A program made the translations under genes and the position numbers. This document shows positions 13,901 through 59,781 of a DNA stretch of 64,000 bases, one piece after another (positions within the stretch are counted from its first letter, which is position 1; every line of letters starts with the position of its first letter). The notes beneath the pieces were generated by a model that searched no databases, had not been told where the DNA came from, and saw nothing but the letters and a program-made list of their open reading frames with translations. Source of the DNA: an uncultured Acidobacteriaceae bacterium (GTDB lineage Bacteria; Acidobacteriota; Terriglobia; Terriglobales; Acidobacteriaceae); the NCBI GenBank assembly GCA_963848515.1, contig CAWKEG010000021.1, positions 29,591 to 93,590 on the forward strand. Reading direction: 5' to 3'.

Positions 13901-15350
13901 TCCCGCGGGGCTTGGCCTGCCCAGCATCAGCCTGCCGACCGTGGCCATGCGCACCAATCCCAACGACCAGTACGGCAAGATTTTGATTGTGACCGGCGGC
14001 GACGCCGACCAGCTTTTGATTGCGGCCCAGGCCGTGGCCTTGCACAGCGACATGCTGTCCGGCGGACTGGCCAGCATTGACAGCATCAAGCTGCCGGAGA
14101 AGCAGGGACCCGATACAGCGCCGCGCTGGGCACGCACCGATCAGACGATTCCGCTGTGGGATTACGCATTGTCCGATCAATTGCAGGGCGACGGCACTGC
14201 GCCCTTGAATGTCTACTTCCGCATTCCTCCCGACATTTTTTATGCCGACCGACCCAATGCGGTGCTGAAGCTGGTGTATCGCTACAATTCGATTCCGATC
14301 GGACCAATCTCGAGCCTCCAGGTGCGGGTCAACAACGCGTTTCTCGGATCGACACCGCTGATACCCGGGCAAGAGGCTTCGCGCAAGATGGAGACCGAGG
14401 TTCCGGTGCCGGTCGTGAATCTGCGGCCGTTCTCGAACTCGCTTTCCTTCGACTTCACTTTTCAATTGCTGAAAAAGGGAGGCTGCGAGGACACGACGCC
14501 GATCAATATGCAGGGCTCGATTCTGCGCGACTCGTACCTTGATCTGCGCGGCTATCCGCACTACGCGCCGCTGCCGAACCTGGAAACATTTGCCAACGCG
14601 GGGTTCCCGTTTACGCGCTTTGCCGATCTCGGCGAGACCACCGTTGTGCTTCCGCCCACGCCCACCGAGCAGGAGATCGAGACCTTCGTTACGCTGATGG
14701 GACACTTCGGCCGGCAAACGGGCTATCCGGGACTGCGCGTGACCGTGGCGGGGCCGGATGCGCTGCACCTGGGCGCGAGAACGGATTTTCTGATTCTGGG
14801 CACAGGGGACGATCAGCCGGGATTCGACCAGTTGAACAACACCCTCCCGGTTGCCTTGCGCAGCGGCCAGATTCAGGTGCGCGATACGCAGGGATTTTTT
14901 GCGCCGCTGCATCAGGCATGGTGGAAGCTCCGCTCCGACGAGCACTCCGAGTCCGGCGACCTGACCGCCTCCGGCACGCCTGACGCGGTGATTGAGGGAG
15001 TGGAATCGCCGTTCGATCCGGGCGCGGGCCGCAGCATTGTTGCCATTCACCTGAGGGATGCGAGCGCCTTCGAGCCTTTCATGGACACGTTCATAAAGAT
15101 TCAACAGTCGAGCGATGTCTCGGGCTCGGTTTCGGTTTTGCATGGGACGCAGTTCCAATCCTTCAGGATCGGCGCAGCGGTTTATCACGTGGGCGCGGTG
15201 CCATGGTGGACGCGACTGCGGCTTTGGCTCCGGCAGGTTCCGTGGCTGATCGCGGTGATCGTGGTGATTCTGGCGCTGCTTGTTTCGCTGTGGACAAGGC
15301 AGTGGCTGAGGGGCAGGGCCCGGTCGCGTCTGAGGATGATTGAGGACTGA
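10938..15350 (+). CDS. bcsA: Cellulose synthase BcsA-BcsB fusion (GT2 + PilZ + BcsB periplasmic domains)
   Basis: PTYNE, DDG, HAKAGN, FDCDH, QTPH, FFCGS, TED and QRIRW; PilZ RTTVR...NMSSGG; BcsB-like C-half (LDLRGYPHYAPLPNL...ANAGFPFTRFADL) with a terminal TM. Confidence 0.95.
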   Translation: MTASGLWQDIGAGENFFTRLLRLIFLLAAAACFCFLAILPLTWPQQAVLGLLTLLMALAMARSSDSYLVTLTLMMMSMFCTFRYGYWRIMQVVQFFQDPASHWGALDVFFIMCLLLAEAYAFLILFLGYFQTIWPLRRAPVSLPENTDDWPHVDVLIPTYNEPLDVVRYSALGAMNMDWPADKIHIYVLDDGRRKAFERFAFEAGIGYKTRADNAHAKAGNINAALKTLSSPLVAIFDCDHVPTRSFLQMTVGWFLRDRKLAMLQTPHHFYSPDPFERNLEQFRVIPNEGELFYGVVQDGNDFWNASFFCGSCAVLRRTALDEVGGIAVETVTEDAHTSLRMQMNGWGTAYVNIPQAAGLATESLSAHVGQRIRWARGMIQILRTDNPLFAPGLTFAQRLCYFNAMCHFLYAVPRLIFLTAPLIYLLLNHTNIPGYWAAILAYALPHLTLSNVTNSRIQGEHRHSFWNEIYETVLSPYILLPTMMALINPKLGKFNVTSKGGVVKRTFFDTRIAQPFLVMLLFNIAGLIVAIPRFFIWDRDRPGTVMMNVLWCCFNVVILGVCTAVARELKQLRTTVRISVVTPVVARMPDGRRISGETINMSSGGTSIRLNEAIEIAPLTEVRLAFPAPAAGTEMHASVMSCEGSVLRVRFENLSIAEEEVLTMVLYSRADSWLGWGEARESDNVLVSLGRIFRISMHGLASTFRSLFTDKDDDDRKASSLSIARSSVIFILAALLMGGGQHLRGQAQHAAVAAKTAAKADAPLGPGHYKDTFSLNDAGSPQIELHGIDSMHNIYFTLPETHVVKTAKIHVYYAFSPSLLPQLSHLKLILNGTLFATIQPTPGQVGGSDSRDAEAEFTIPTDLLVHNNTLTIEFIGHYTMVCEDPANTTLWARVHRTTFLDIEGDLLPLADDLKQLPIPFLDPAVIQPLSIPVVFAGTPSYKAIQAAGIVTSYFGMLSENRPVRFPVHFGAIPQGNAIVIADNAANLPAGLGLPSISLPTVAMRTNPNDQYGKILIVTGGDADQLLIAAQAVALHSDMLSGGLASIDSIKLPEKQGPDTAPRWARTDQTIPLWDYALSDQLQGDGTAPLNVYFRIPPDIFYADRPNAVLKLVYRYNSIPIGPISSLQVRVNNAFLGSTPLIPGQEASRKMETEVPVPVVNLRPFSNSLSFDFTFQLLKKGGCEDTTPINMQGSILRDSYLDLRGYPHYAPLPNLETFANAGFPFTRFADLGETTVVLPPTPTEQEIETFVTLMGHFGRQTGYPGLRVTVAGPDALHLGARTDFLILGTGDDQPGFDQLNNTLPVALRSGQIQVRDTQGFFAPLHQAWWKLRSDEHSESGDLTASGTPDAVIEGVESPFDPGAGRSIVAIHLRDASAFEPFMDTFIKIQQSSDVSGSVSVLHGTQFQSFRIGAAVYHVGAVPWWTRLRLWLRQVPWLIAVIVVILALLVSLWTRQWLRGRARSRLRMIED

Positions 15351-15383
15351 GAGCGGCGGGCGAAAGTGATGAATCAGCGATAG

Positions 15384-15426
15384 GCAACAGCCACCAGACA
15401 AAAGAATTCTGGTGGCTGTTGCTTTT
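15384..15426 (+). terminator. Intrinsic terminator between bcsAB and bcsZ
   Basis: 15-bp perfect stem gcaacagccaccaga / tctggtggctgttgc with a 9-nt loop, followed by TTTT. Confidence 0.75.
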
Positions 15427-15581
15427 GCACATTCCTCTTCTCCGTTGTCCCTGCACATCGTCTTTAACTCCATGGAAACAAGCTGTATGCTAGAGGAATA
15501 GATAGCGGTTACTCGAAGGGGCGCCTGGCCGGATTCCAATAGCGATCTGCCACGCGGGCCTCTTTGCCGAGGACTTGTGCG

Positions 15582-16754
15582 ATGGGCATTCGGAAGTCCC
15601 TGCGCGGGAAGTGTGTTCTGCCGATCGTGCTATTGTCGATGCTCTCTGCAACGGGCGGGTGCAAGCAGCATAATTGGGCGCTCTGGGACGCGTATTCTTC
15701 GCGATTCATCGATGCACAGGGCCGCGTATTCGATCCCAAAGGTGATCAACACACCACGTCGGAAGGTCAGGCGTACGCGATGTTCTTTGCGCTGGCCGGC
15801 GATGATCGCGCACACTTCGACAAATTGCTCAGTTGGACCCAAGGCAACCTGGCTCAGGGCGACCTCGGCACGCATCTGCCGGCATGGCTATGGGGAAAAG
15901 ACCCGAGCGGCGCGTGGAAGACGCTGGACGCAAACTCGGCATCGGATGCGGATGTCTGGATGGCTTACACGCTGGTGGAAGCGGGGCGGCTTTGGAACAA
16001 TCCGCAGTACACGAACCTGGGCAGCCGGATGCTTTCGCAGATTGCCGTCACCGAGGTGGCGAATCTTCCCGGTTTCGGCTTGATGCTGCTGCCGGGCCCG
16101 ACAGGTTTCCAGCACGATCAGACGTGGACGCTGAATCCGAGCTATCTTCCGGTTTTTGTCTTTCAGCGGCTGGGGCAGTTCGATCCGAAAGGACCCTGGC
16201 AGCAGATCGCGCTCAACATTCCGCACCTGCTTGAGCAGAGCGCGCGCCACGGCTACGCGATGGATTGGGTAGATTATTTTCCCGGTGACGGTTTTTATCC
16301 TGCGACCGTCGAGAAGCCAGGAAGCAGCAGCAGCGATGGCGCGGGCGGTGGGTATGACGCAATCCGCGTATATCTGTGGGCAGGCATGACGGACGACAGC
16401 CAGGGAGCGCGTACAGATTTGGTAAATTACGTTTCCGGAATGGGCGGATATCTTGCCGATCATGATGCCCCCCCGGAAAAGGTAAGTGACCTTGGCGTGC
16501 CGATGGCGCAAGATGGTCCTGTGGGATTCTCGGCGGCCCTGCTGCCGTATTTGAATGCATTTCCCAATTTCTCGAAGATCAGCATTCAACAGATGATTCG
16601 AATGAATCTGATGAAGGATGAGTCGACGGGTTTGTATGGGAAAGACCTAAGCTATTACGATCAGAATCTTGTGCTGTTCGCAACTGGTTTTCTGGACGGC
16701 AGATTCCGGTTTGGCCCAGGGGGCGAACTGAAAGTAGATTGGAAGCGCCGATGA
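15582..16754 (+). CDS. bcsZ: Endo-1,4-beta-glucanase BcsZ (GH8)
   Basis: TTSEGQAYAMFFAL, LPAWLWG, NSASDAD, NPSYLP, YDAIRVYLW and YYDQNL; lipoprotein-like signal; GAGGA RBS. Confidence 0.95.
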   Translation: MGIRKSLRGKCVLPIVLLSMLSATGGCKQHNWALWDAYSSRFIDAQGRVFDPKGDQHTTSEGQAYAMFFALAGDDRAHFDKLLSWTQGNLAQGDLGTHLPAWLWGKDPSGAWKTLDANSASDADVWMAYTLVEAGRLWNNPQYTNLGSRMLSQIAVTEVANLPGFGLMLLPGPTGFQHDQTWTLNPSYLPVFVFQRLGQFDPKGPWQQIALNIPHLLEQSARHGYAMDWVDYFPGDGFYPATVEKPGSSSSDGAGGGYDAIRVYLWAGMTDDSQGARTDLVNYVSGMGGYLADHDAPPEKVSDLGVPMAQDGPVGFSAALLPYLNAFPNFSKISIQQMIRMNLMKDESTGLYGKDLSYYDQNLVLFATGFLDGRFRFGPGGELKVDWKRR

Positions 16755-19700
16755 GGGTTGGTTGCGGGACGGGGAGCAGGATTCTAGTTGCAGCGGGGTG
16801 CCTTTTGCTGGCGCTCCCGGTCGGTCTTGCTCAAAAGAAACCCGCCGCCGGCGCGCATGAGGGCGAACGGGGCACGCTGATTGACAAGGCGCGGGCGCTG
16901 GAGTCGCGGGGCCGGCCGGATATGGCCGTTCAACTTTGGCAGCAGATTCTGCTTTCGCAGCCCAACAATGCTGACGCACTCGCCGGCGTGGCCAAAGACT
17001 ATAAATTGATGGGCGAGGCGGACAAGGCTGACGCGGCACTGGATCGTCTGCGCAGGGTAAATCCCAACGACCCGAATATTGCCAAAATCGAGGCGCTGAG
17101 CAGCTCGAGCGCTCAGAGCGACGAGCTGCGCCACGCAGGCGAGCTGGCCAGGCAGGGCAGGGCCGATGAGGCGATGCAGATTTATCGGCAGTTGTACGGC
17201 GAACATCCGCCGGAAGGGCCAGTTGCGATTGCCTACTATCAAACGCTGTTTGGCACGGCCAACGGCAAAGCTGCGGCGATTGCGGGGATGAGATCGCTGG
17301 CCGATCGCAATCCGGGCGACGCGAGCACTGCGGTGGCGCTGGGCACGCTGCTGACTTACGACGCCAAGACCCGGCCCGAGGGAGTGCGCATTCTTGAGGC
17401 GCATCCGCAGGATGCCGATGCGCAGGCGGCGCTGCGGCAGGCGCTGATATGGGACTCGGCCAATCCGGCTTCCGCTGCGGAGTTGCGCCAATATTTGAAA
17501 GAGCATCCTCAGGATACGGAAGTTGCCGCAAACCTGAAGTCGAGCGAACGGAAGCTTGCGCAAATGAACTCGGGGATTGCGCGCACGCCGGCCGAGCGCG
17601 CGGCCTTTGCAGCGCTCAACGCGCACCGGTTGGAGGATGCGCAGCAGCGATTCGAGGCCTTGTTGCAGAAGGAGCCGAAGAACGGACGCGTTGCGGCGGG
17701 CATGGGATTTCTGCGCATGCAGCAGAAAGATTTTGGCGGCGCCATCAGTTATCTGACCGAAGCGCAGCAGGACGGCTACACGGCGAGAACGGTCGAGAAT
17801 GCGCTTACGACTTCGCGCTTCTGGTTCACGATGGCCGAGGCAACGCAGGCCTTCAACGAGAATCAACTGGTCGCGGCCGAAGCAAAGTACAAGACAGCGC
17901 TGGGCATGAATGCCCGCAGCGCCGAAGCGTTGAATGGATTGGCTGGCCTGCTGACCAAAGAGCAGAAGTATGCGCAGGCGGCGAGCGTCTACGAGCAATT
18001 GATCAAGGTGCAGCCCAATAATCTGGACGGATGGCGCGGAGTCTTTCTCTCCTATGCGCGCGACCACCAGTACCAGAAGGCTCTTTCGACGGCGGGGCGC
18101 TATCCGGCGCGGGTGAGACTGGCTTTGGCCAGGGATCCGGAGTACTTGAGCTCGCTGGCAAGCATCTATGAGGCGCAGGGGCGGAGCGCGGATGCCGAAC
18201 ACGTGTTGGCGCAGGCGCTGGCGCTGCCATTCCCCGACAACGGGACGAGCCTGAAGACGGATACAAAGCTGCAATACGCGGGCATCCTGATGGAGGCTAA
18301 ACGCTACGAGCAGGCCGCGGCGTTGTATACGCAAATACTCAACGAAGATCGAAACAACCTGTCGGCGTGGCTCGGCCTGGTGAGCGCGCATCACGGGCTG
18401 GGGCAGGATACGCTGGCCATCACGGACGTGCAGAAGATGCCTCCGGCGACGTACGAGGCCGCGCTGGGCGATGCGGGATTTCTATCGCTGCTGGGCGCAA
18501 TCTATCAGCAGGCCAATCAGCTTGAAGTGGCGCAAGGATTGCTGGAGCGGTCCGAGAAGCTGCAGACTGCGGCGGGCGGGCAGCCCAGCGTTGCGCTCGA
18601 ACTGCAGTTGGCCGGCATCTACCTGCTGCGCAATAACACCGCGCAGGCTTACGACATTTATAGCCGGGTGCTCAAAGCCAATCCCGGAAGTGCCGATGCG
18701 TGGAAGGGTTTGATTTCAACGCTGGCCGCGACCAACCGAAATGCGCAGGCGCTTGAAGAGATCGCGATGATTCCCGCGCCGGTGCGCAAGCAGCTTGAGA
18801 GCGATATTGAATTCGAGCAGACCGAGGCGGGCGTGTACGCCACAAGCGGCGATACGGCTCATGCCGTGGAATACATGAACCGCGTGCAGGCGCATTACGC
18901 GCGGCTCAAGATGCAGCCGCCGGCGAATGTAGACATCCAGAACGCGTGGCTGCTCTACAACACCGGCAACGACCGCGCTCTTTATCCTGCGCTGATGCGG
19001 CTGGGGAGCCGGAACGATCTCTCCGTCGCGCAGCGAGAGACGGTTCAGAACATCTGGGCCAACTGGAGCGTCCGCCGTGCCGCGGCGGCGATGGAGAACG
19101 GCAACATGCGTCGCGCGGTCGATATTTTGGATGCGGCTTCGCAGGCATTCCCAAACAACCTGACAGTGCGCAAGGCAGTGGCCGGTGGATTTGCGCGTGT
19201 GGGCCGCGCGAAGGAGTCGCTGGCGCTCTTCAAAGCGATTCCCATGCAGGATGCGAGCTCGGGCGATTTTCAAGGCGCGATTGGCGCGGCGCTGCAGGCA
19301 AACGACCGGAGCCAGGCTGAGTTGTGGTTGCGCCAGGCGCTGGAGCGGTTTCCGAACGACCCGGCGATTTTGTCGCTTGGGGCGCGTTACGAGCAGGCAC
19401 GCGGCGACAACGAGCGCGCTGCGGATTACTGGCGCGCGGCGCTGGCGGCCATGCCGGCGGCTACGCCCGTTGACAGGCTTGCGCACCAGTTGGCCTATCC
19501 CGAGCAGGATACAAAATCGCATCGCGCAGTAACGGCGGCCGATTTGCAGAACCTGCTCGATCCTGAGAACGAGCCTTTTGCGAAGACAACCAAGGTGCCG
19601 CCGCTGCCCGCATACGGGCCCGACCCTTATAACGGACCCGTGCCGGTAATGATCCCGCAGCCGCAGTCGTATGCGCCGCGGGCGGCAGACGCGGCGGGCA

Positions 19701-22700
19701 GAAACGCTTCTTCATCGAATGCCGGCCAGCCCGACGCGAATCCGCAGATCAAAGCGATTCCGTCGTCGCAGACGGCAAGTCCGCAACGGTTCCAGCAGCA
19801 GAGCGCGACGCGGATGGAAGCTGGAGATTCAGGTTGGAGCCAGGCGGGCTTTGGCGGATTGGTGGTTCGCGACGCGGTCTACCATCCGCAGGATCGAGTC
19901 TTGCGATTCGGTGCAACGGCGACGCCTCAGCGAGTTTATGACGCAAGCGGAGCAGCTTCGGCAGAGTTCGAACAAGCGCAGTATGCGAGCCAGGCAGACG
20001 TGCCGATCGCAGCGAACGCGCCGCATTCGATGGCATCCGACGCATGGAAGGGACTGGTCTTCTCGTTGATGGCGGGGAATCGCAACACAGAGGCGCTCGC
20101 AACGCTGAACAAGATTCCGCCGGATGTGCGTCGTCAACTGGAGAGCGATATCGAGTTTGTGCAGGGCGTCGCCAGCTTGTATGTGGCCGTGGGCGATGCG
20201 GCAATGGCGCGTGACTATTTGAACCGCGTGGAGAACTACTATCTGCTGCACCGGTCGGCTGCGCCGGCGGGTCTTGAAGTGCAACACGCGTGGCTGCTCT
20301 ATAACCTGAAGGATGACGTCTCTTTGTATCCGCTGATGCTGCGCCTGGATGCGCGCCCGGATTTGAGCGCGGCCGAGCGAGCGCAGTTGGATTCATTGTG
20401 GGCCACCTGGGCCGTGCGCCGTGCTGAGACTGCGATGAATGGAGGCAATCTTCTGCGCGGCGTGGAGATTTTGCAGGCTGCATCGAAGGATTACCCGGAC
20501 AATCTGGATGTGCGCAGAGCGGTGGCCGGTGCGTATGCACGAGTCGGGCGCGCTGCCGACGCGGTCACTCTTTTCAAAACGATTTCGATGGAGAACGCGA
20601 CCTCCGGCGATTACCAGGGAGCGATTTCGGCGGCTCTCGGCGCGACGGACATGGCGCAGGCCGAAGCCTGGTTGCGCCAGGCGTTGGCACGTTTCCCGAG
20701 CGATCCGAAGGTGCTGGGGCTTGCCGCACGATTCGAGCAGGCACGCGGCAACAATGAACGCGCCGCGGACTACTGGCGCGCTGCGCTGGCGACCATGCCT
20801 GCTGACTCGGCGGTCAAAAGTCTCGATAGCGGGCTCGGTTATCCGGCTGGATCGATCGCGCCCGCTGCGCCGGGAGACACAAAGCGATTGCTCGACCCGC
20901 GGCACGAGCCGGCAGCGAACAGTTTGCCGCCGTTGCCTGCCTATCCAACGGCTGATGCGAACCGTGCGCCGGTGGGCCTGGCCGGCCCACCCGCGGAATC
21001 CGCACCGCAGCATCAATGGCTCAACGCGCCGTCGAACGATCCACTGCCCATGCCTGGCGGGACGGGAGCGAACATTGTTCCGTTGCCGAATGCGCAGGGA
21101 ATCGCACCAGTGTACTCTCCGCAAAACGCGCAACAAGGAACGTCGGTGGCGCAGCCGGTGTTGATCCAGCAGAGTTGGACGCACCTGGTGACGACATGGC
21201 CGGAGGTGAGTGCAACTCATAGACGGAAGAAGGCTCATCGGCATCCTTCGACGTATGGCGCTTCGGCGCGGACACGGTCCGCTGCTAGAGCCAGGACCGC
21301 TGCGAGGGCCCGCGCCGCCGCAAGAGGACGAACGACGCTGCGTGCCAGGGCTGCATCCGGTACGCGAATGGCGCCGAGTGCAAGGACAGCCGCGAGTCCC
21401 CATCGTTATGCAGGCACGGTGAAGCTGCCGCCCTCGGAGCAGACCATCGCTTCGACGGAGGCGACAGTTGCAGCGCCAGGATTGCGGATCGCATCCGCGC
21501 CCATGGGACCGCTGGCAGCGCAGGTAAACGCCCGGTTTGCCGAAGAGACCGACAGCCAATTGACGCAGGGTTCGGCCGCGGTCATTCACACGCTGGCGAA
21601 TGCGCCGGTTAATGCGCAAATCCAGATGGGCGCGGCGCAGGTTCCGGCTGCTGCGACCGACGGTCAATACACGCAGGCGCAATATACGCCGTCTGCCCAG
21701 GAAGCAGCCACGGGCGCCTATTCGGTGCCGAGAAAACCTGCTGAAACCACGCCCGAGAAGCCTGCCGCGTCGACGCCGCGGACGTATGCGCATAAGAAAA
21801 CCCGTAAAAAAAGCAAACGAGCAATGCAGCAGGCCAGCCAGCCAACGAACGCGACGCTGGGCAATACGCCCGCACTGAGCAACGCACCGCAGACGCCTGC
21901 GGCTGAAAACGCGCAGCAGAACCAAACCTACGATGCGCAGTCTCCCGCGCCAACCTCAACGGGCGGGGGTTTGTCCGACGAGGAACTGGAGCAGAGGAAT
22001 CTGCCTCCGCTGCGCGGGCCATGGGTGCGCGTGCAGCGCGAGCCCAAACCCGTCAGTCCGCGTGAAGAGGCGGAGATGCAGTTGCGCACCATCGAGAGCG
22101 GCTACAGCGGCTGGCTCGGCGGCACGGGCTACATCAACTACCGCAGCGGCGCGCTGGGCTTTGACCACTTGTCGGCGCTTGAGTCACCGTTTGAAGCGTC
22201 CGCACCACTCGGGTACAACGGCCGGGTCACCCTTGTGGTCAAGCCCGTGTTCCTGGACTCCGGTCAGGCCGACGGCAGCGCGACGATCTCGGTAACGCAG
22301 TCGACGACGGGCGGCAATCAACTGGTTTCCATTCCCGAGCCCATCGGCACCCTGACCACGACCGACGTTAACCCGCCGGCGCAGCAAAACGCGGTCGGCT
22401 TTGGCGGCGAGGTGCAACTTGCGTTTCCTCACGCGGCAATTGCCGGCGGATACACACCGTACGGATTCCTGGTTTCGACCTTCACGGCTCGCGGCATGTT
22501 CCGGCCTGGCAACGGGCCCGTCACCATCACTGTCGCGCGCGACTCAGTCAAAGACAGCCAGCTCTCTTACAGCGGACTGCGCGACCCGGCGGGCGACACG
22601 CTTGGCAACCAGGGACAGATCTGGGGCGGCGTAGTTGCCAACCAGGGCAACGTGCAATTCTCGCGCGGCGACGCGATGTCTGGGTTCTACGTGGGCGCGG

Positions 22701-23293
22701 GCGGCCAGTACCTGACCGGCTATCACGTCGAAAACAATACGCGCATCGATGGGAACGGCGGCGCGTATTGGCGGCTGATGACTTCGCCGGAGAATGGCAA
22801 CCTGAGCATCGGCGTCAACTTTTTTGCAATGCATTACGCCAACAACGAGAACGCGTTTACGCACGGCATGGGCGGATACTTCAGTCCGCAGGGCTACTTC
22901 CTGGCCAATGTGCCGTTCACGTTCGTGGGCCACTACGGAACCAACTGGCACTACAACGTTGTGGGCGGGCTGGGCGTGCAGGCCTTCCAGGAAAACAAAA
23001 CGCCGCTGTGGCCGCTGGCCGGTGACAAGGCAATTGAGACAGGCCAGAACAATCCTATGCTGCCGGATGTGACCAACGTCGGGCCGAACTACGATTTGCG
23101 CGGCCAGGTGTCTTACCAGATCAGTCCGCACTGGTTTGCAGGTGGATTCTTCGGTGCGAACAATACGCGCAACTACTCGTCGGCCTCGGCAGGATTCTCG
23201 ATCCGCTACATGTTCCGCGAGCAGCCGTCCACGGCGACCGAGCCAACGGGGATCTTCCCTAGCGACGGCTTGCGGCCGTTTACGGTGCCGTAG
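16751..23293 (+). CDS. bcsC: Cellulose export outer-membrane protein BcsC (TPR + beta-barrel), unusually long
   Basis: Signal peptide; TPRs; C-terminal barrel with GGYFSPQ motif; position after bcsZ with ATGA overlap. Confidence 0.9.
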   Translation: MRVGCGTGSRILVAAGCLLLALPVGLAQKKPAAGAHEGERGTLIDKARALESRGRPDMAVQLWQQILLSQPNNADALAGVAKDYKLMGEADKADAALDRLRRVNPNDPNIAKIEALSSSSAQSDELRHAGELARQGRADEAMQIYRQLYGEHPPEGPVAIAYYQTLFGTANGKAAAIAGMRSLADRNPGDASTAVALGTLLTYDAKTRPEGVRILEAHPQDADAQAALRQALIWDSANPASAAELRQYLKEHPQDTEVAANLKSSERKLAQMNSGIARTPAERAAFAALNAHRLEDAQQRFEALLQKEPKNGRVAAGMGFLRMQQKDFGGAISYLTEAQQDGYTARTVENALTTSRFWFTMAEATQAFNENQLVAAEAKYKTALGMNARSAEALNGLAGLLTKEQKYAQAASVYEQLIKVQPNNLDGWRGVFLSYARDHQYQKALSTAGRYPARVRLALARDPEYLSSLASIYEAQGRSADAEHVLAQALALPFPDNGTSLKTDTKLQYAGILMEAKRYEQAAALYTQILNEDRNNLSAWLGLVSAHHGLGQDTLAITDVQKMPPATYEAALGDAGFLSLLGAIYQQANQLEVAQGLLERSEKLQTAAGGQPSVALELQLAGIYLLRNNTAQAYDIYSRVLKANPGSADAWKGLISTLAATNRNAQALEEIAMIPAPVRKQLESDIEFEQTEAGVYATSGDTAHAVEYMNRVQAHYARLKMQPPANVDIQNAWLLYNTGNDRALYPALMRLGSRNDLSVAQRETVQNIWANWSVRRAAAAMENGNMRRAVDILDAASQAFPNNLTVRKAVAGGFARVGRAKESLALFKAIPMQDASSGDFQGAIGAALQANDRSQAELWLRQALERFPNDPAILSLGARYEQARGDNERAADYWRAALAAMPAATPVDRLAHQLAYPEQDTKSHRAVTAADLQNLLDPENEPFAKTTKVPPLPAYGPDPYNGPVPVMIPQPQSYAPRAADAAGRNASSSNAGQPDANPQIKAIPSSQTASPQRFQQQSATRMEAGDSGWSQAGFGGLVVRDAVYHPQDRVLRFGATATPQRVYDASGAASAEFEQAQYASQADVPIAANAPHSMASDAWKGLVFSLMAGNRNTEALATLNKIPPDVRRQLESDIEFVQGVASLYVAVGDAAMARDYLNRVENYYLLHRSAAPAGLEVQHAWLLYNLKDDVSLYPLMLRLDARPDLSAAERAQLDSLWATWAVRRAETAMNGGNLLRGVEILQAASKDYPDNLDVRRAVAGAYARVGRAADAVTLFKTISMENATSGDYQGAISAALGATDMAQAEAWLRQALARFPSDPKVLGLAARFEQARGNNERAADYWRAALATMPADSAVKSLDSGLGYPAGSIAPAAPGDTKRLLDPRHEPAANSLPPLPAYPTADANRAPVGLAGPPAESAPQHQWLNAPSNDPLPMPGGTGANIVPLPNAQGIAPVYSPQNAQQGTSVAQPVLIQQSWTHLVTTWPEVSATHRRKKAHRHPSTYGASARTRSAARARTAARARAAARGRTTLRARAASGTRMAPSARTAASPHRYAGTVKLPPSEQTIASTEATVAAPGLRIASAPMGPLAAQVNARFAEETDSQLTQGSAAVIHTLANAPVNAQIQMGAAQVPAAATDGQYTQAQYTPSAQEAATGAYSVPRKPAETTPEKPAASTPRTYAHKKTRKKSKRAMQQASQPTNATLGNTPALSNAPQTPAAENAQQNQTYDAQSPAPTSTGGGLSDEELEQRNLPPLRGPWVRVQREPKPVSPREEAEMQLRTIESGYSGWLGGTGYINYRSGALGFDHLSALESPFEASAPLGYNGRVTLVVKPVFLDSGQADGSATISVTQSTTGGNQLVSIPEPIGTLTTTDVNPPAQQNAVGFGGEVQLAFPHAAIAGGYTPYGFLVSTFTARGMFRPGNGPVTITVARDSVKDSQLSYSGLRDPAGDTLGNQGQIWGGVVANQGNVQFSRGDAMSGFYVGAGGQYLTGYHVENNTRIDGNGGAYWRLMTSPENGNLSIGVNFFAMHYANNENAFTHGMGGYFSPQGYFLANVPFTFVGHYGTNWHYNVVGGLGVQAFQENKTPLWPLAGDKAIETGQNNPMLPDVTNVGPNYDLRGQVSYQISPHWFAGGFFGANNTRNYSSASAGFSIRYMFREQPSTATEPTGIFPSDGLRPFTVP

Positions 23294-27612: not shown

Positions 27613-28740
27613 CTAGCCGCGGCGCAGGGGTTTGTTCATAGGCACGACCTGCACGGTGACGTCGCGGACTTCTGAGAGAAAGCGGTTGAGCACCGAGCCG
27701 CGCCACAGAATGTCCCAGCGCGAGCGGGCGGACTGACCAAAGACCACGTGCGAGATGCTCTCCTGCTGAGCAAAGCGGATGAGGGCGTCGGAGACGTTGC
27801 GGTCTGTCAGGTTGACGACCTTGGCGCCAAGATCGCGAGCCATGCGCTCGTACTCTTCAAGCCGATGGAAGGCTTCCGGATCGCCGTGACCCTTGTCGTC
27901 GTCGGGGCGAGTGACGTAGACCGCATACCAATTGCTGGCCAGGCGGCCGGCGACGCGGGCGCCCACGCGCAGCAGCCGCTCAGTTCCGGGACGGGTGCTG
28001 AGGCAGACCATGACTTTTTCAGGAATGGGCGCCTGTTCCAGGCCTTGCGTGCGGCGATACTCTGAGGCGCGGCTGCTCACCTGCTCGGCGGTGGTGCGCA
28101 GCGCGAGTTCGCGGAGCATGTTCAGGTTGCCCTTGCGGAAGAAGTTGGCCAGCGACTGCTCGACCTTTTCCGCGGCGTAGATTTTTCCCTGGCGCAGGCG
28201 TGAGCGAAGTTCGTCCACAGTCACGTCGACGTTGACGACCTCATCGGCGCGCTTGAAGAAATTGTCGGGGACGGTCTCGCGGATGACGGTGTTCGCGGAG
28301 CGGTTGACGGCGTCGTTCAGCGTTTCAAGGTGCTGGATGTTGACGGCCGTCATCACATTAATGCCGGCTTCAAGCAGCTCGAGAACATCTTCGTAGCGTT
28401 TGCGGTTTTTGCTGCCGGGGACGTTGGTGTGGGCCAGCTCGTCTACCACTACGGTGTTGGGATGGCGGGCAATGATGGCGTCGACGTCCATCTCTTTCAG
28501 GTTGACGCCGCGGTAGGGAATCACGCGCTGGGGAATGATCTCGAGGTCACGGACGCGGGCCTCGGTTTCTGCGCGGCCATGGGATTCAACCAGGCCGATG
28601 ACGACATCGACGCCCAACTGGTGCTTCATGCGGTGGGCATCGTTGAGCATGTCGTAGGTTTTGCCCACGCCGGGCGCGGCTCCCAGGTAGATGCGGAGTT
28701 TGGCGGCTTCCGGCTTTTTTTCGAGGACGATCTCTGCCAT
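27613..28740 (-). CDS. KdpD N-terminal sensor domain + Usp domain (stand-alone)
   Basis: LRIYLGAAPGVGKTYDML, VDELAHTN, KRYEDV, NIQHLETLND and LRELALR; Usp-like VVFGQSARSRW. Confidence 0.9.
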   Translation of the reverse strand: MAEIVLEKKPEAAKLRIYLGAAPGVGKTYDMLNDAHRMKHQLGVDVVIGLVESHGRAETEARVRDLEIIPQRVIPYRGVNLKEMDVDAIIARHPNTVVVDELAHTNVPGSKNRKRYEDVLELLEAGINVMTAVNIQHLETLNDAVNRSANTVIRETVPDNFFKRADEVVNVDVTVDELRSRLRQGKIYAAEKVEQSLANFFRKGNLNMLRELALRTTAEQVSSRASEYRRTQGLEQAPIPEKVMVCLSTRPGTERLLRVGARVAGRLASNWYAVYVTRPDDDKGHGDPEAFHRLEEYERMARDLGAKVVNLTDRNVSDALIRFAQQESISHVVFGQSARSRWDILWRGSVLNRFLSEVRDVTVQVVPMNKPLRRG

Positions 28741-28743
28741 GGT

Positions 28744-30150
28744 TCAGCCCACCTCTACGGGATGCCGGACGTCTTCCGCAACGGCAACTGGAAGAGTGAA
28801 GCGGAACGTGGCTCCGTGGCCGAGGCGGCTCTCGACGGCGATCTGGCCGCCGAGCGACTCGACCAAACGCCGGACCAGCGCCAGGCCGAGGCCCGTACCC
28901 TGGTCAGAGAAAGTGTTGAAGCGGTCGAAGATGGTGCTGAGCCTGTCTGCCTCGATGCCGCGGCCGGTGTCGCGCACGGTGAACTGGACAACGTTCTTCA
29001 TCTCCTCGGCGGCGAGCAGGATTTCGCCGTCCTGCGGCGTATAGCGAATCGCGTTCGAAAGCAGGTTGTCGAGGATGGAACGCAGGGCGCGCCTGTCGGC
29101 TTTGACGACGGAGAGGTCGGCGTAGGCATTCACTTCCACGCGAATGTGTTTCTCCGTCGCTTCATCGCAATAGCGGTCGCGAGCCTCGCCCAGAGCCTGC
29201 AACGGCCTGAGCCGCTCGAGCTTGAGTTCGCGCTTGCCGGAATCGAGCTCGGCAACTTCGATCAGGTCGCGCATCAGGTCGTCCAGCTTCTCGGTCTCGT
29301 TGCTGGCCGAGGCTACCAGCTCAGCCTGCAAGGGAAGCAGTTCGCCGCCGAAGCCCTGGTTGAGCGCATAAAGACCGCGGCGCAACTGGAGGAGCGGGCC
29401 GCGCAGCTTGCGGCTGGCGACCGCGATAAATTGTGTTTTGAAGCGGTCGGTATCCTGCAGCGAGGTGACATCTTCAAGCGTTGTGACGGTGCCGAGCAGG
29501 CGGCCTTCGGAGTCGCGCATGGGCGTGGTGCGGAGCCGGAAGCTGCGCTCCTGTTTGCCGATGCGCATGGGCAGCATGGAGGCTTCATCTTCAGTGGCCA
29601 CGGCCTTTTGCATGGAGACGGCGTCGCGAATGGCGCTCAGAATCTTGTCGCCTCCGGGGGTATTGGTAAGCGCCATGCGGTCTGTGGCGGCCTCACCCAG
29701 CAGCTCTGCGGCAGCCGGGTTGACCTTGAGTACGTGGCCTTTGCCGTCGGTAACGATGATGGGCTCAAAGATGGATTGAAGCACGGCATCGGAGAGTTGA
29801 AACTCCATCTGGCGTCGGCCGGCCTCGGAGTCGCGCAGTTCGCGGAGACGAACGGCGATGCGGCTCAGCTCGCCGGCCAGAATGCCGAAGTCGTCGCGGC
29901 TGCTCCACTCCACGCGGTGCTCGAGATTGCCCTGGGCGATGCGGTGGGCGTCGCGCGCCAACATGCGGATAGGGGAAAGCACAAAGTAGACGGTCGCGAT
30001 TTCAACCAGCAACGCGGCCACGATGAAGCCGTAAGCCAGGGTGGTTTGGCCGGCAGCGGCAAGGGCGCGATGGGTAAGTGCCACGAGCCCTGCCGTAAGG
30101 CAGGCGAGTAGCACACAGCCGATAACAAGTCGCTGGGAAAGGTTGAGCAT
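28744..30150 (-). CDS. Membrane HAMP-PAS histidine-kinase-like protein lacking the phospho-acceptor His
   Basis: Two TMs, HAMP, PAS; H-box reads ASRKLRGPL; intact NLLSNAIRYT, DTGRGI and GTGLGL. Confidence 0.85.
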   Translation of the reverse strand: MLNLSQRLVIGCVLLACLTAGLVALTHRALAAAGQTTLAYGFIVAALLVEIATVYFVLSPIRMLARDAHRIAQGNLEHRVEWSSRDDFGILAGELSRIAVRLRELRDSEAGRRQMEFQLSDAVLQSIFEPIIVTDGKGHVLKVNPAAAELLGEAATDRMALTNTPGGDKILSAIRDAVSMQKAVATEDEASMLPMRIGKQERSFRLRTTPMRDSEGRLLGTVTTLEDVTSLQDTDRFKTQFIAVASRKLRGPLLQLRRGLYALNQGFGGELLPLQAELVASASNETEKLDDLMRDLIEVAELDSGKRELKLERLRPLQALGEARDRYCDEATEKHIRVEVNAYADLSVVKADRRALRSILDNLLSNAIRYTPQDGEILLAAEEMKNVVQFTVRDTGRGIEADRLSTIFDRFNTFSDQGTGLGLALVRRLVESLGGQIAVESRLGHGATFRFTLPVAVAEDVRHPVEVG

Positions 30151-30223: not shown

Positions 30224-30310
30224 GGCAGGGAATAGGGAATAGGGAATAGGGAATACGAAGAGTGATTCAGGGCAGGGAACGGAAATCGGGGATCAGGGAT
30301 CAGGGAGGAG
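30224..30310. repeat. Degenerate 7-bp tandem array
   Basis: (agggaat)x4 then agggaac, ggggatc, agggatc. Confidence 0.85.
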
Positions 30311-30509: not shown

Positions 30510-32006
30510 TCAGGGGATTTGGCAGACCGCTAACGACGCGTTGTGCCAATGACAAGCCAACCCTGCCGGCTGGGGATAACTGACCATGACCCAATCGACG
30601 CCGAACTCGGACTTCAACCGCTCAAAGTCCGCGATCTGAAAATCTTTCCAGCCTTGCTGGGCCTCGACCTGGCGTTCCCAGTCGGGGCCGAGTTCGGGAA
30701 CCTGGGTGACGACCGCGGTGTCCTTGATTGCATCGGCTAGCTGGCTTCGCTCGGCGAGAGCGCGGAAGCTGTGGTAGTTCTCCCCTGGCGCGGCAAGATA
30801 GCGGGGATCGAGGGCAAAGTAGGCGTTCGTGGGAGTATTGGCCGCGATCCATTCAAAAGCCTGAATCCAGGGATTCGCGGTTGTGCGTCCGGGCCACTCG
30901 ATTTGATAGGAACCGCCAAGCTGCGCGCGCTGCGCGGCAAGCATGGAGCCGTTGAAGAGAACCAGAAAAAGCGCCCAGCGCCAGACGTGGGCCTTGAGAA
31001 GGTACTTTCCGAGCAGGCATCCGGCGGTAAGGGCCAGAAAGAGGTAAATGAGGTGAAGGTAGCGCATGGGCTGCAAGGGTGTGAGCCGGACCAGGGCAGG
31101 GAAACCGAGCACGGTCATGGCTACCGCTTGCTGAAAGACTCCGTAGACGAAGACGGCCATGGCAAAGCGCGCCAGCAGGGTTTCTCCGCGTTTCTGGGCC
31201 ACGCGCCAGAGCAGCCAGAACAGGAACAAGGGAGCCAATGCGCCGAGCCACTCGTACCAATGCCACTTGTAGAGGAAGTAGTAGGAACGGGTGTCCAGCG
31301 CCGTTCTCCAGGTCGGGCTCTGCGGTTCAAAGACCCAGCTCAAAGGGGCAAAGGCTGCCGCCACCGAGGTGGCTCTTGCCGGGCTCAAGGATTGGAGCCA
31401 GACATGGACGGGCTCCCACAAGGCCAAGGTGAGGAAGAAGCAGAAGGAGATGCCCAGCGCGGCCATGATGGGATGGATGATAAAGGCCACCAGCAACATA
31501 GGCACAATGCGCCAGCGCCTGCCCTCGATAATCCACGCGATGGCCATGAGGATGAGGGCGGTGGCCACGCTGCGGGCGTGCAAATGAGCGTCAAAAACAT
31601 AGAGCGCGGTGCCGGCGACGGGCAGGGTAAACATGGCGCCGACCAGGGCAACCCCCGCCCAGTGTGCGCGCGCCTCGGGAAACAGGCTTCGCGCGATACG
31701 CCAGGCTGCATAAAGCGTCAGCATGATGGTTGCAAGTTGAAGGAGCAGCTCGGCGGCAGCAATGGGGATGTGCGAGAGGCGGATGAATTCCGCGACCCAG
31801 CTATCGAAGACGGTGGCCTGGAGCTGGAGACGGAAGAACTCGGCGTCGTGGGGATAGAGAGCGGGATTCAGATCGGCCTTGACGGCCGAAAGGTAGACAC
31901 CGTCATCTTCAATGCCGGGATGGTAGCCCATCACGGCGAAAGAGAGCGCTGTAAAGCCCAAGATCAACAACAAGTTGATCAGGAATTTGTTCCGTTGCAC
32001 TATCAA
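30510..32006 (-). CDS. Polytopic membrane protein, possible GT-C glycosyltransferase
   Basis: Many TM segments; acidic EDDGVY motif after TM1; C-terminal soluble domain; divergent from the GT2 gene. Confidence 0.6.
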   Translation of the reverse strand: MIVQRNKFLINLLLILGFTALSFAVMGYHPGIEDDGVYLSAVKADLNPALYPHDAEFFRLQLQATVFDSWVAEFIRLSHIPIAAAELLLQLATIMLTLYAAWRIARSLFPEARAHWAGVALVGAMFTLPVAGTALYVFDAHLHARSVATALILMAIAWIIEGRRWRIVPMLLVAFIIHPIMAALGISFCFFLTLALWEPVHVWLQSLSPARATSVAAAFAPLSWVFEPQSPTWRTALDTRSYYFLYKWHWYEWLGALAPLFLFWLLWRVAQKRGETLLARFAMAVFVYGVFQQAVAMTVLGFPALVRLTPLQPMRYLHLIYLFLALTAGCLLGKYLLKAHVWRWALFLVLFNGSMLAAQRAQLGGSYQIEWPGRTTANPWIQAFEWIAANTPTNAYFALDPRYLAAPGENYHSFRALAERSQLADAIKDTAVVTQVPELGPDWERQVEAQQGWKDFQIADFERLKSEFGVDWVMVSYPQPAGLACHWHNASLAVCQIP

Positions 32007-32078
32007 TCTCGTATACTCAAAGTCAGAATGTCATCAACAATTATTGTTCCATCCTACATACAGATAGACGGCGCCACA

Positions 32079-32834
32079 ATGGATTCGCTGACATCAGCGG
32101 GACAGGAAAAGCTTACCCTGGACAAACTTGCGCTCGTGATTCCCACCCTGGGTGAGGCGGAGAATATTGGCGGGCTGCTGGATCATGTGCGGTCGGTGCT
32201 CGATCCGTTGGGAATTAATTACGAGATTCTGGTAGTGGACGACGATAGCCAGGACGGCACCGAGGGCATTGTTACCGCAATTGCCAGCCAGGACCCCCGC
32301 GTTCGGCTGCTTGTCCGCCGTGGGCAGAGAGGCTTGTCCGGGGCTGTTCTCTTCGGTTGGCAAAACACGGATGCATCGATTCTGGGCGTGATGGATGCTG
32401 ACCTGCAGCACCCGCCGGAACTGCTGCCGGAGCTGCTCCATTCGATCGAGACCGGGCACGACCTGGTGATCGGCAGCCGTTACGTAGCCGGCGGTCGCCT
32501 GGGCAACTGGAATCCGATTCGAAAGTTTCTTTCTGCGGCGGCGGTGTGGGTCACCTTGCCCATTCAAAAAGCGGGAATGCACGCCAAAGATCCGATGTCG
32601 GGGTTCTTCCTGGTGCGCCGCGAATGCGTGGAGCGGATTCCGTTTCAGCGCGCGGGTTTCAAGCTTTTGCTGGAGGTCCTGGTGCGCGGGCGGATTCGGT
32701 CGGTGGAGGAGATTCCGCTGGCATTTGGGCTGCGATACCGCGGGGCCAGCAAGGCCAACTTCAAGGTTGCCGTCGATTATGGCAGTCTGCTGATCAGGCT
32801 CTATGCCGGGCGGTTCGGGCTGTCGCGAAACTGA
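32079..32834 (+). CDS. Polyprenol-phosphate sugar synthase (DPM1-like GT2)
   Basis: VIPTLGEAENI, VVDDDSQDGT, RGLSGAV, MDADLQHPPE, GSRY, DPMSGFF and GFKLLLE. Confidence 0.9.
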   Translation: MDSLTSAGQEKLTLDKLALVIPTLGEAENIGGLLDHVRSVLDPLGINYEILVVDDDSQDGTEGIVTAIASQDPRVRLLVRRGQRGLSGAVLFGWQNTDASILGVMDADLQHPPELLPELLHSIETGHDLVIGSRYVAGGRLGNWNPIRKFLSAAAVWVTLPIQKAGMHAKDPMSGFFLVRRECVERIPFQRAGFKLLLEVLVRGRIRSVEEIPLAFGLRYRGASKANFKVAVDYGSLLIRLYAGRFGLSRN

Positions 32835-58338: not shown

Positions 58339-59781
58339 TCAGTAGGCCTGGAGCTGGTCGAGGGGCAGGCGGACGCGGAAGCAGGTGGACCCTGGCTCGG
58401 AGCGGACACTGATGAAGCCGCGATGCTTGCGGACGATGCGCATGGCGTTGTCGAGTCCTAGCCCGAGGCCCTGGCCGGGAGCTTTGGTGGTGAAGAAGGG
58501 TTCGAAGATGCGTTCCTGCAATTCCGCGGGAATGCCAGGTCCGGTATCCCAGATCTCAACCAGCATCATTTCGCCTTCAAGGCGGCAGGCGAGACGCAGG
58601 AGACCTTCGTTGCCGAGTGCGTCGAGGGCGTTTTCAAGCAGTGCGGTCCAGACCTGGTTGAGCTCGCCTCCATAGGCGTTGATGGTGGGCAGGCCGGGCT
58701 CGTAATCGCGCTCGATTCGGATGTTGGTCATGCGTGACTGGAGCATCTGGACGGTGGCGTCGAGGCCGGCAGGAACGTCGACTTCGAGAATTGGTGCGCG
58801 GTCCATGCCGGAGTAGGTCTTAACGGCATCGATGAGGTCAAAGATGCGTGCGGTGGAGTGGGCCAGAGTCTGGACGGAGCGCGTGGCGCGGAGATAGCGG
58901 GCAAAGAACTGCAGGGAGATGCAGGTTTCGTTGCCGTTGAGCAAAGTGCGCAACTGGTCAAGATCGGCGACGCAAACACCCTGCTCTGCCAACTGGGGCG
59001 CGACTTCCCATGGATCGGGACAGCCCAGCTTCTCAAGCCACTGGCGGAGTGCCTCTTCGCGGGCGATGAAGGCCAGGGCACCGGGCTCCTGAGACGGACC
59101 TGGGAGGCTGCGCCGGAGGATGTTTTCTTCCCAGGCCTGCACGCCGCGAATCTGCACTTCAGTGAGGCAGAGGTTGACGAGTTTGAAGCGGTCTTCGCGG
59201 TTGGCTGTGAGAGCGTTGGCGAGGCTGGAGGCGGCGCTTTGGGCGGCGGAGGCGGGGTTGTTGAGTTCGTGGGCCAAGTTGCCGGCGAGTTTGCCGAGCG
59301 CGGTGAGTTTTTCAGCCTGCTGCTCGATGCGGGTGACTTCGCGGACGCGGTCGAGCAGCGTGGCGACAACGCGCTGGGCCATTGAAGGGATGGCCTGCAG
59401 CATCTGAGGGAAGATGGTCTTGGGAATGATGAGCGCCCAGACTGGAGAGATAGCGAAGCCTTGTCCGCCGTAGGTCTTCATGCGCGAGAAGGGGAGTACG
59501 CCGGTCATTTGCCCAGCGCGGCCGATGAACAAGGCCATGGGACCACCATGCTGGCGGCGAACGTGGATTTCGCCTTTGAGGATAAGAATCATGTTTTGAG
59601 CCGAGGCGCCTTCTTCAAAGAGGACATCGCCGGCGTTGGCGATGAACTCCTCGCCATGGCGCGCGAGCCAGAGGCGGTCCTCAAGAGGAAGGCCATTGAG
59701 CGGGCCAATGCGTTGAAGAGCCTCGGCGATTTTTTCTGCCGGGGTGGGCGTAACGGGAGCGGAAACGGTAGGGGAAAGCAT
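58339..59781 (-). CDS. cNMP-binding-domain sensor histidine kinase
   Basis: N-terminal cNMP-like domain (LFEEG); LAHELNNP; NQVWTALLENA, DTGPGI, FFTTK and GLGLGL. Confidence 0.9.
   Translation of the reverse strand: MLSPTVSAPVTPTPAEKIAEALQRIGPLNGLPLEDRLWLARHGEEFIANAGDVLFEEGASAQNMILILKGEIHVRRQHGGPMALFIGRAGQMTGVLPFSRMKTYGGQGFAISPVWALIIPKTIFPQMLQAIPSMAQRVVATLLDRVREVTRIEQQAEKLTALGKLAGNLAHELNNPASAAQSAASSLANALTANREDRFKLVNLCLTEVQIRGVQAWEENILRRSLPGPSQEPGALAFIAREEALRQWLEKLGCPDPWEVAPQLAEQGVCVADLDQLRTLLNGNETCISLQFFARYLRATRSVQTLAHSTARIFDLIDAVKTYSGMDRAPILEVDVPAGLDATVQMLQSRMTNIRIERDYEPGLPTINAYGGELNQVWTALLENALDALGNEGLLRLACRLEGEMMLVEIWDTGPGIPAELQERIFEPFFTTKAPGQGLGLGLDNAMRIVRKHRGFISVRSEPGSTCFRVRLPLDQLQAY

Follow-up and report, generated by a model that had tools for sequence, protein, structure and literature searches.

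A conserved histidine-less HAMP-PAS kinase homologue paired with a short KdpD in Acidobacteriota, a possible phosphorelay-independent module of the Kdp potassium pump system

Results

A membrane-bound pseudo-histidine kinase and a short KdpD are encoded by two coupled genes

The subject of this study is a pair of genes in a 64,000-nucleotide stretch of DNA, referred to in its full length as the window, from an uncultured Acidobacteriaceae bacterium (assembly GCA_963848515.1, contig CAWKEG010000021.1). Two open reading frames on the minus strand, 28744..30150 (468 amino acids) and 27613..28740 (375 amino acids), encode a membrane protein of the histidine kinase fold with arginine in place of the phospho-acceptor histidine and, directly downstream, a short KdpD composed of the KdpD N-terminal domain (KdpD-N) and a Usp domain (Table 1). 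A first-pass annotation of the window had described two genes 3 bp apart, an arginine codon at 29410-29412 and intact N, G1 and G2 boxes, all of which was borne out by the open reading frames, the sequence and the alignments. The closest database matches carry Terracidiphilus (Acidobacteriaceae) source names, which places the window in that genus; the exact window protein is absent from the contig index, and the public runs containing the locus are all metagenomes.

The upstream protein has two transmembrane (TM) segments (residues ~4-28 and 36-65 by hydropathy), and because the loop that joins them is only ~10 residues long, a periplasmic domain is absent. The periplasmic 4HB_MCP sensor domain that Pfam detects in the relatives P0123, P0124 and P0139 is thus missing here. 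The H-box reads FIAVASRKLRGPL. Position H+1 is Lys248 where a catalytic Glu or Asp is expected, and this lysine is invariant in 81 sequences (the window and 80 orthologous loci); H+4 is Gly251 where the Thr or Asn of a phosphatase is expected, with Asp in 69, Asn in 8 and Gly in 4 of the 81. An acid at H+1 is required for the kinase and Thr/Asn at H+4 for the phosphatase reaction (10.64898/2026.02.27.708494). A phosphatase role, which the first-pass annotation had considered, is disfavoured by the loss of this E/DxxT/N motif and of a receiver partner. The ATP-binding boxes are conserved (N362/N366, G1 DTGRGI, F408/F411 and G2 GTGLGL, the latter with G420-L-G-L). Of the attributes of a two-component HisKA kinase, the protein thus retains the CA boxes and lacks the acceptor histidine, the H+1 and H+4 residues and a cognate response regulator, while it shows those of a pseudo-histidine kinase: the fold, a replaced acceptor histidine and conservation under selection.

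The absence of the histidine is shared by all orthologues

The alignment of orthologues that had been proposed as a check on the first reading showed that the loss of the histidine is conserved. Among the 120 closest homologues (85-96% identity), the position is occupied by Arg (117), Gln (2) or Lys (1), and in the window plus 80 species-level genome loci by Arg (79), Gln (1) or Lys (1); a histidine occurs in neither set, and S-x-K-L-R-x-P-L is otherwise invariant in the 81 sequences. More distant relatives were retrieved from a search of 1.84 billion cluster representatives (50% clusters). Those at 41-78% identity have Q, G, N, S, K, E or R at this site, never His, and canonical SHELRTP kinases first appear at ~35-38% identity. 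The distant relatives are homologous through HAMP, PAS, DHp and CA and have all ATP-binding residues in common; among the His-less relatives overall, the replacing residues are R/Q/K/E/S/G/A/D/N. A substitute acceptor was sought in the DHp domain, and no conserved histidine is present in residues 233-305 of the orthologues. Conserved histidines are found only elsewhere, at the end of a TM segment (H27), in HAMP (H78), in PAS (H139), in the G3 box (H445) and in the C-terminal tail (H463).

The gene is under purifying selection. The pairwise ratio of non-synonymous to synonymous substitution rates (dN/dS) among 81 orthologues is ~0.11 for the whole gene, 0.06 for PAS, 0.10 for DHp and 0.09 for CA, and that of the KdpD-N gene is 0.08, values that are rough because dS is near saturation. 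Arg247 is encoded by five synonymous arginine codons among 103 sequences of at least 78% identity. Since the loss of the histidine is common to every orthologue examined, it is not the product of chance or error. Judged by its sequence, the protein is a genuine, conserved pseudo-histidine kinase whose histidine loss is old and selected.

That PAS is so strongly conserved points to a site for a ligand or partner within it, and the retention of the ATP-binding site points to a continuing role for nucleotide binding or for phosphorylation of a residue other than histidine. In one orthologue (P0121, L083:10001-11506), the PAS region is Arg/Pro/Ser-rich and unalignable, and this stretch looks like an assembly frameshift artefact rather than biology. 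The extreme C-terminus (28744-28767) consists of the tail R-H-P-V-E-V-G with the invariant His463, which is found in all 81 Terracidiphilus-type sequences and in relatives of 53-57% identity and is not conserved in the Blastocatellia-like branch; it may be a lineage-specific docking motif.

The short KdpD retains the residues of an atypical serine kinase

The downstream protein matches KdpD (PF02702) at 302 bits and Usp (PF00582) at 31 bits, so that the KdpD N-terminal domain and Usp had rightly been assigned to a separate gene. It has no TM or hydrophobic segment by hydropathy and neither GAF nor DHpCA, which corresponds to the KdpD/Usp architecture. The protein is 41% identical to residues 1-400 of E. 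coli KdpD and matches PDB 2r8r (E=7e-61), and its best NCBIfam family is NF038185, "KdpD-like non-kinase potassium sensor" (418.5 bits).

Silberberg et al. 2024 (PMC11018627) identified the N-domain of KdpD as an atypical serine kinase, which by phosphorylating Ser162 of KdpB inhibits KdpFABC at high K+. Ser162 lies in the TGES loop of KdpB, and its phosphorylation shuts the pump at sufficient K+; the kinase uses a Walker A motif GX5GKT, W39, the Walker B residues D109/E110 and R190 (PMC11018627). In our alignment A1, the corresponding columns (Walker A, aromatic, D-E and Arg) are invariant or conservatively substituted, and the window protein is on this basis predicted to be an atypical serine kinase with its catalytic residues intact. 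The earlier description of KdpD-N as a sensor of ATP and c-di-AMP was incomplete in leaving out this activity (PMC11018627).

With respect to c-di-AMP, the Usp binding motif (A/G/C)-x-S-x-S-x2-N ... (Y/F) was derived for Firmicutes only (PMC8214093), and the window Usp, with C-L-S-T-R-P-G-T ... Y, agrees with 3/5 positions of this Firmicute-derived motif. The short KdpDs of Acidisarcina polymorpha, Acidipila rosea and Acidobacterium capsulatum share 73-79% identity with the KdpD-N of the window. All three species appear in Supplementary Data 1 of PMC11018627, which is restricted to species annotated as having a Kdp pump; each is entered with a KdpE accession and no diadenylate cyclase accession, and for Acidipila rosea and Acidisarcina polymorpha the entries comprise only two KdpD-type chains. 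Since the species with the closest named orthologues have no listed diadenylate cyclase, c-di-AMP may not be the input. In E. coli, the serine-kinase activity of KdpD responds to K+ only with the membrane part in a lipid environment. Acidobacteriota typically split the serine-kinase and histidine-kinase functions over separate chains, and the input route of short KdpDs without K+-sensing domains has been flagged as an open conundrum (PMC11018627).

The pair is invariable and lies in kdp operons in a sister branch

The KdpD-N gene is located directly downstream of the pseudokinase gene in 80/80 genome loci, with tblastn matches 3-9 nucleotides (nt) apart in 74 of them. It also adjoins the pseudokinase in every His-less locus with enough flanking sequence, and in distant relatives the pseudokinase stop and the KdpD-N start overlap by 1-4 nt.

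Eighty further loci from a metagenome scan, pooled with the loci retrieved before them (e.g., L084, L086, L089 and L154), fall into four groups. In the first, Blastocatellia-like group, with VAS[S/G/A/D/E]KLR, the gene immediately upstream of the pseudokinase is kdpC in 11 loci, and a kinase with a DUF4118 domain is found together with KdpE upstream or downstream, standing beside the pair in L084, L086, L092 and L107. The arrangement is most explicit in L086 (Blastocatellia), which reads porin-kdpF-kdpA-kdpB-kdpC-pseudokinase(Asn)-KdpDN/Usp-[DUF4118-GAF-HisKA-HATPase]-KdpE; L084, likewise among the 11, is arranged similarly and has Gly at the histidine site. In the second, Terriglobia-like group, with VAS[R/Q/E/K]KLRDPL, the pair stands alone and is never accompanied by kdp genes in the flanks. 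The third group consists of canonical TASHELRTPL kinases in the order kdpABC-KdpDN-HK (HK, histidine kinase), and the fourth ("YLQ", TAA[H/Q/N/R]YLQTPL) has the order kdpABC-KdpDN-HK* (e.g., L155 and L157). L087 reads kdpFABC-KdpDN-HK*(Glu). Its His-less kinase (P0139, L087:10001-12595) carries an extra ~250 residues after the CA domain that have no Pfam match.

The survey thus identifies the HAMP-PAS kinase family as a recurrent component of acidobacterial kdp loci, always adjoining a short KdpD. The absence of kdp genes nearby, as first described, holds for the lineage of the window but not for the sister branch of this His-less clade, whose location within kdpFABC operons makes the link of the pair to K+ pumping a strong one. 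The KdpB proteins of L084, L086 and L087 keep VDESAITGESAPVIRE, identical to E. coli.

A different situation was found in an "Acidipila sp." metagenome-assembled genome (MAG; L172:1471-11128), where a short KdpD that we call type B lies beside porin-kdpFABC and a divergent pair of DUF4118 kinase and KdpE. Acidobacteria therefore have two short-KdpD lineages. A database search with the Terriglobia type-B protein returned Acidoferrales/Acidiferrales-named and other MAG-labelled matches, and no Terracidiphilus names.

L089, in which no kdp genes are visible, encodes a KdpD N-domain fused to STAS (L089:10614-12047) after a HAMP-PAS kinase that contains the histidine and after a receiver gene; the C-terminal part of this fusion shows Cys-rich insertions in alignment A1. 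The fusion may indicate that the Walker kinase domain of KdpD type has targets other than KdpB.

Histidine and receiver gene were lost together

A neighbour-joining tree of 92 kinases, calculated without the H-box columns and rooted on the His-containing L089, groups the His-less "KLR" sequences (the first two groups) into a monophyletic clade (bootstrap 100/100). The YLQ group (100/100) and the His-retaining group (95/100) are monophyletic as well, and the His-retaining kinases, YLQ and L087 fall together at 98/100. These groupings imply that the histidine was lost at least twice.

Receiver genes were counted where the downstream flank reaches at least 2.5 kb. In 8/8 such loci with a canonical SHELRTPL kinase, a receiver-domain gene lies 3-57 nt behind it (L154 has two such genes, plus a separate KdpE upstream), and no receiver gene is present within 3 kb in 112/113 His-less loci. 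The sole exception is L086, in which the KdpE lies behind the DUF4118 kinase. The acceptor histidine and the cognate receiver were thus lost together, as a real abandonment of phosphotransfer predicts. With the histidine, the H+1 acid and the cognate receiver gene all gone, the initial proposal that the pair is independent of phosphotransfer is supported.

The receivers that follow the His-retaining relatives (L154:11307-11948 and 12055-12804; L089:9905-10630) belong to a distinct family with a C-terminal region of ~100-130 residues without Pfam match. The output of these proteins would reveal what the ancestral pathway controlled.

Surroundings of the pair in the window

The lack of a response regulator or K+ pump in the window, also part of the first description, was corroborated by two approaches. 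Pfam detects no receiver domain and no KdpA/B/C among the ~40 open reading frames, and a six-frame tblastn search of the window, with KdpA/B/C/D/E from acidobacteria and E. coli and three receiver proteins as queries, revealed no partner genes at E<=1e-3, the only matches being the pair itself and an unrelated kinase at 58.3-60.4 kb. The locus thus differs from canonical KdpD/KdpE, where one polypeptide (KdpD-N-Usp-4TM-GAF-DHp-CA) is encoded beside kdpE and kdpFABC, in having two genes and another architecture of the C-terminal half.

Downstream of the pair lie convergent DUF2089/SHOCT genes (Pfam). A DUF6798-like multi-pass membrane protein (30510-32006, minus strand) is encoded directly upstream in the same orientation, followed by a divergent GT2 glycosyltransferase gene (32070-32834, plus strand). 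A co-oriented DUF6798-like gene is found directly upstream in 67/93 Terriglobia-type loci, often with a divergent GT2; because it is not universal, we have left it out of the module. The 360-nt intergenic region 5′ of the pseudokinase gene contains a perfect tandem repeat of the heptamer AGGGAAT (4.1 copies, 30227-30255). The repeat was considered as a conserved regulatory site and rejected, as it is missing from 77/78 orthologous loci and is therefore probably incidental. No promoter or terminator signal rose above background in simple scans.

Two other regions of the window deserve mention. The gene at 58339-60381 (minus strand) encodes a 680-residue kinase-like protein with a cyclic-nucleotide-binding domain and HATPase_c, and no HisKA/DHp by Pfam; it may be another "incomplete" histidine kinase. 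At 10938-23293 (plus strand), a GH8 glycosyl hydrolase gene (15564-16754) lies between two very long open reading frames (1470 and 2184 amino acids), and the region may be a polysaccharide synthesis or secretion cluster.

Table 1. Positions of the pseudokinase and short KdpD genes and their features in the window
Feature	Position	Strand	Description	Basis
Pseudo-histidine kinase gene	28744..30150	-	468 aa (amino acids): 2 TM, HAMP, PAS, degenerate DHp, intact CA	ORF (open reading frame), Pfam
N-terminal membrane anchor	29974..30150	-	residues ~1-59, two hydrophobic segments	hydropathy, alignment
HAMP	29842..29982	-	residues 57-103	Pfam PF00672
PAS	29458..29790	-	residues 121-231; most conserved part, 91.5% mean identity, dN/dS 0.06	Pfam
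Degenerate DHp/HisKA	29236..29439	-	residues 238-305	Pfam HisKA 21.5 bits, below the gathering score of 26.9
Arg247 codon CGC	29410..29412	-	at the phospho-acceptor His position	sequence read, orthologue alignment
CA (HATPase_c)	28783..29097	-	residues 352-456; N, G1, F and G2 boxes intact	Pfam, 100 bits
Shine-Dalgarno-like GAGGTGGG	28755-28748	-	inside the 3′ end of the pseudokinase gene
Intergenic spacer	28741-28743	-	3 nt; minus strand reads TGA-ACC-ATG from the upstream stop to the KdpD-N ATG; tight coupling
Short KdpD	27613..28740	-	KdpD-N + Usp, 375 aa; predicted atypical serine kinase	Pfam, NCBIfam
Walker A	28657..28683	-	G20-x5-G26-K27-T28 (E. coli G30..T38), then Tyr29 (E. coli W39)	alignment A1
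Walker B	28438..28443	-	Asp100-Glu101 (E. coli D109/E110), catalytic pair	invariant in A1
Arg202	28135..28137	-	E. coli R190, adenine coordination	invariant in A1
Usp	27670..28020	-	residues 241-357	Pfam

Discussion

A proposed phosphorelay-independent module of the Kdp system

We propose that the pair serves the Kdp potassium pump as a regulatory module that works without a phosphorelay, a reading to which we give a probability of about one half. It builds on the anatomy of the two proteins, the ancient and selected loss of histidine and response regulator, the invariable tight pairing with KdpD-N, the location of the sister branch in kdp operons and the intact serine-kinase residues. The short KdpD would provide the catalytic output as a serine kinase of KdpB. 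The pseudokinase is the descendant of a true HAMP-PAS histidine kinase linked to kdp, which originally passed its signal to a receiver of its own. In this lineage the receiver gene, the acceptor histidine and the catalytic H+1 acid have been lost, and the membrane anchor, HAMP, PAS, the dimerisation helices and the ATP-binding domain have been kept. As a membrane sensor or scaffold it would bind the soluble short KdpD and switch its serine-kinase activity by contact instead of phosphotransfer. The arrangement would parallel E. coli KdpD, whose TM/C-terminal half governs its own N-terminal kinase domain, here split over two polypeptides. Physical contact between the pseudokinase and KdpD-N, and KdpB as the target of the short KdpD in this genome, are steps that we infer, as are the signal, presumably from the membrane or a PAS ligand, and a role for ATP binding by the CA domain.

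Several observations weigh against this proposal, beyond the inferred status of the contact and of the target. By tblastn, kdpFABC, the DUF4118-type kinase and kdpE are absent from the window and from ±10 kb of >90 Terriglobia-type loci. The short KdpD of the L172 kdp locus (45% identical to its paralogue of the window) has no HAMP-PAS partner, so that a short KdpD can work without one. The NF038185 score of the window protein, 418.5, lies below the family cut-off of 550. Finally, a pure scaffold role leaves the selection on every ATP-binding motif of the CA domain unexplained.

The last point touches on a different use of the ATP-binding site, namely that the pseudokinase has been repurposed as a protein kinase whose CA domain phosphorylates Ser, Thr, Tyr or another residue on KdpD-N/Usp, KdpB or itself, which would result in a two-step kinase cascade. 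The N, G1, F and G2 boxes are invariant across an anciently His-less clade that spans two acidobacterial classes at 41-58% identity, and the CA domain has a dN/dS of 0.09, both as expected for such an enzyme. There are precedents for serine kinases of the histidine kinase fold in SpoIIAB/RsbW and PDK/BCKDK. However, no acceptor candidate specific to the His-less clade could be identified in the alignment (Ser246 is also present in canonical kinases), and a conserved CA domain may equally mean binding or ATP sensing, as in the pseudokinase DivL (PMC4211667). We regard a repurposed kinase as unlikely.

A similarly low probability is assigned to the idea that the pair has diverged from Kdp in Terriglobia, where it would have left the kdp operon and then gained another substrate or process. 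This would account for the fact that it is never kdp-linked in >90 Terriglobia-type loci, and the co-oriented DUF6798-like neighbour in 67/93 of them could hint at another context, though this gene is not universal. Functional divergence of the detached pair is also made possible by the paralogous short KdpD that holds the kdp locus in L172, another Terriglobia-type genome, and no Terracidiphilus names were among the matches returned for this type-B protein. Against divergence, the serine-kinase residues are kept, the KdpD-N is 62% identical to an operon-embedded orthologue, and the closest named orthologues (73-79%) come from species with a Kdp pump and KdpE; for two of these, Acidipila rosea and Acidisarcina polymorpha, no more than two KdpD-type chains are on record.

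In a third alternative, which the first-pass annotation had raised and which stays in contention although we give it the same low probability, the pseudokinase is a modulator comparable to RetS that heterodimerises via its DHp helices with the DUF4118-GAF-HisKA-HATPase "KdpD C-half" and so tunes KdpE phosphorylation and kdpFABC transcription, with KdpD-N as a separate player. The pseudokinase, a DUF4118-type kinase and KdpE are indeed encoded in one locus in L084, L086, L092 and L107, purifying selection acts on the DHp domain (dN/dS 0.10), and the PDB sequence matches include RetS and DivL, so modulators with this fold exist. Yet it is KdpD-N, and not the DUF4118 kinase, that universally adjoins the pseudokinase in tight coupling; the kdpFABC-KdpDN-HK* operons of L087, L155 and L157 have no detectable DUF4118 kinase or KdpE in the available flanks; and the DHp-CA regions of the two kinases are only ~33% identical. 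Strain-specific decay or a sequencing error in an ordinary histidine kinase, for which nothing speaks beyond the departure of a single codon from the consensus, is already refuted by the same substitution pattern in hundreds of independent assemblies, a dN/dS of ~0.1, intact reading frames and synonymous variation of the Arg247 codon, and retains practically no probability.

Returning to the regulatory module, it is tempting to go one step further. Tentatively, the His-less kinase might be more than a passive scaffold, namely an ATP-using or ATP-sensing direct gate of a Walker-type serine kinase, giving a hitherto undescribed chain from pseudo-histidine kinase to atypical serine kinase to P-type ATPase; alternatively, the detached Terriglobia pair might have been recruited to a substrate other than KdpB. 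We consider this extended reading clearly less likely than not. Such a gate would explain the input of short KdpDs that lack K+-sensing domains or c-di-AMP. If the recruitment were true, the repeated independent loss of histidine and receiver in kdp-linked HAMP-PAS kinases would represent a general route from two-component to one-step protein-protein signalling.

Relation to known systems

Short KdpD serine kinases, split KdpDs and pseudo-histidine kinases are each already known. The closest counterpart of the downstream protein is the short KdpD of Deinococcus geothermalis, DgKdpD (PMC11018627; NF038185), which has the same KdpD-N and Usp domains, the same catalytic motifs and no TM, GAF or DHpCA, and which phosphorylates KdpB under c-di-AMP control (PMC11018627). 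The window protein differs in that it is coupled to a His-less HAMP-PAS protein, does not lie beside kdpFABC and has the c-di-AMP motif at 3/5 positions. In the split KdpDs of Acidobacteriota/Chloroflexota, Deinococcus and cyanobacteria (PMC11018627, PMC5716572), the N-terminal half likewise has its own gene and the second chain is a TM/GAF/DHpCA kinase. The Blastocatellia-like relatives, too, possess a DUF4118-type kinase and KdpE, but here a third component, the HAMP-PAS pseudokinase, stands beside KdpD-N. With full-length KdpD of E. coli, in which the membrane/C-terminal sensor part controls the N-terminal serine kinase, the system would share this logic, though between two polypeptides. 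Its C-terminal half, however, is 2 TM-HAMP-PAS rather than 4 TM-GAF, without histidine autophosphorylation and with no KdpE nearby.

Among pseudo-histidine kinases, DivL of Caulobacter (PMC4211667; PDB 4q20), the second-best PDB sequence match to the pseudokinase, also has the histidine kinase fold, with Tyr in place of His, and acts without phosphotransfer. DivL senses DivK~P and controls CckA, whereas no receiver partner is evident here and the partner is a Walker-type serine kinase; the mechanism thus probably differs from the receiver binding of DivL. RetS of Pseudomonas, which acts on GacS (PDB 6dk7/6dk8 are among the matches), similarly is a histidine kinase-like protein that regulates another signalling protein by contact, but it keeps receiver domains and targets a bona fide histidine kinase. 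Among the papers retrieved from the searchable literature, we found no description of a conserved, obligately paired His-less HAMP-PAS kinase as the partner of a short KdpD, of such a pair being part of kdp operons in one class while standing apart from them in another, or of a repeated co-loss of histidine and receiver in HAMP-PAS kinases.

The discovery of the serine kinase in 2024 left K+ sensing open for ~900 species that have only a short KdpD/Usp chain, especially those without diadenylate cyclase. The locus described here offers a testable candidate for the missing input, a HAMP-PAS membrane protein of histidine kinase ancestry that is always located beside the short KdpD and often in a kdp operon, and that has shed both histidine and receiver on at least two independent occasions. 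It is also among the cleaner natural examples of a two-component kinase that has turned into a phosphotransfer-independent regulator, dated by phylogeny and tracked by the loss of its partner gene. Acidic soils and peat count Terracidiphilus and its relatives among their most abundant bacteria, and the pair, which is conserved across soil Acidobacteriota, is probably a phosphorelay-independent input that controls the K+ pump.

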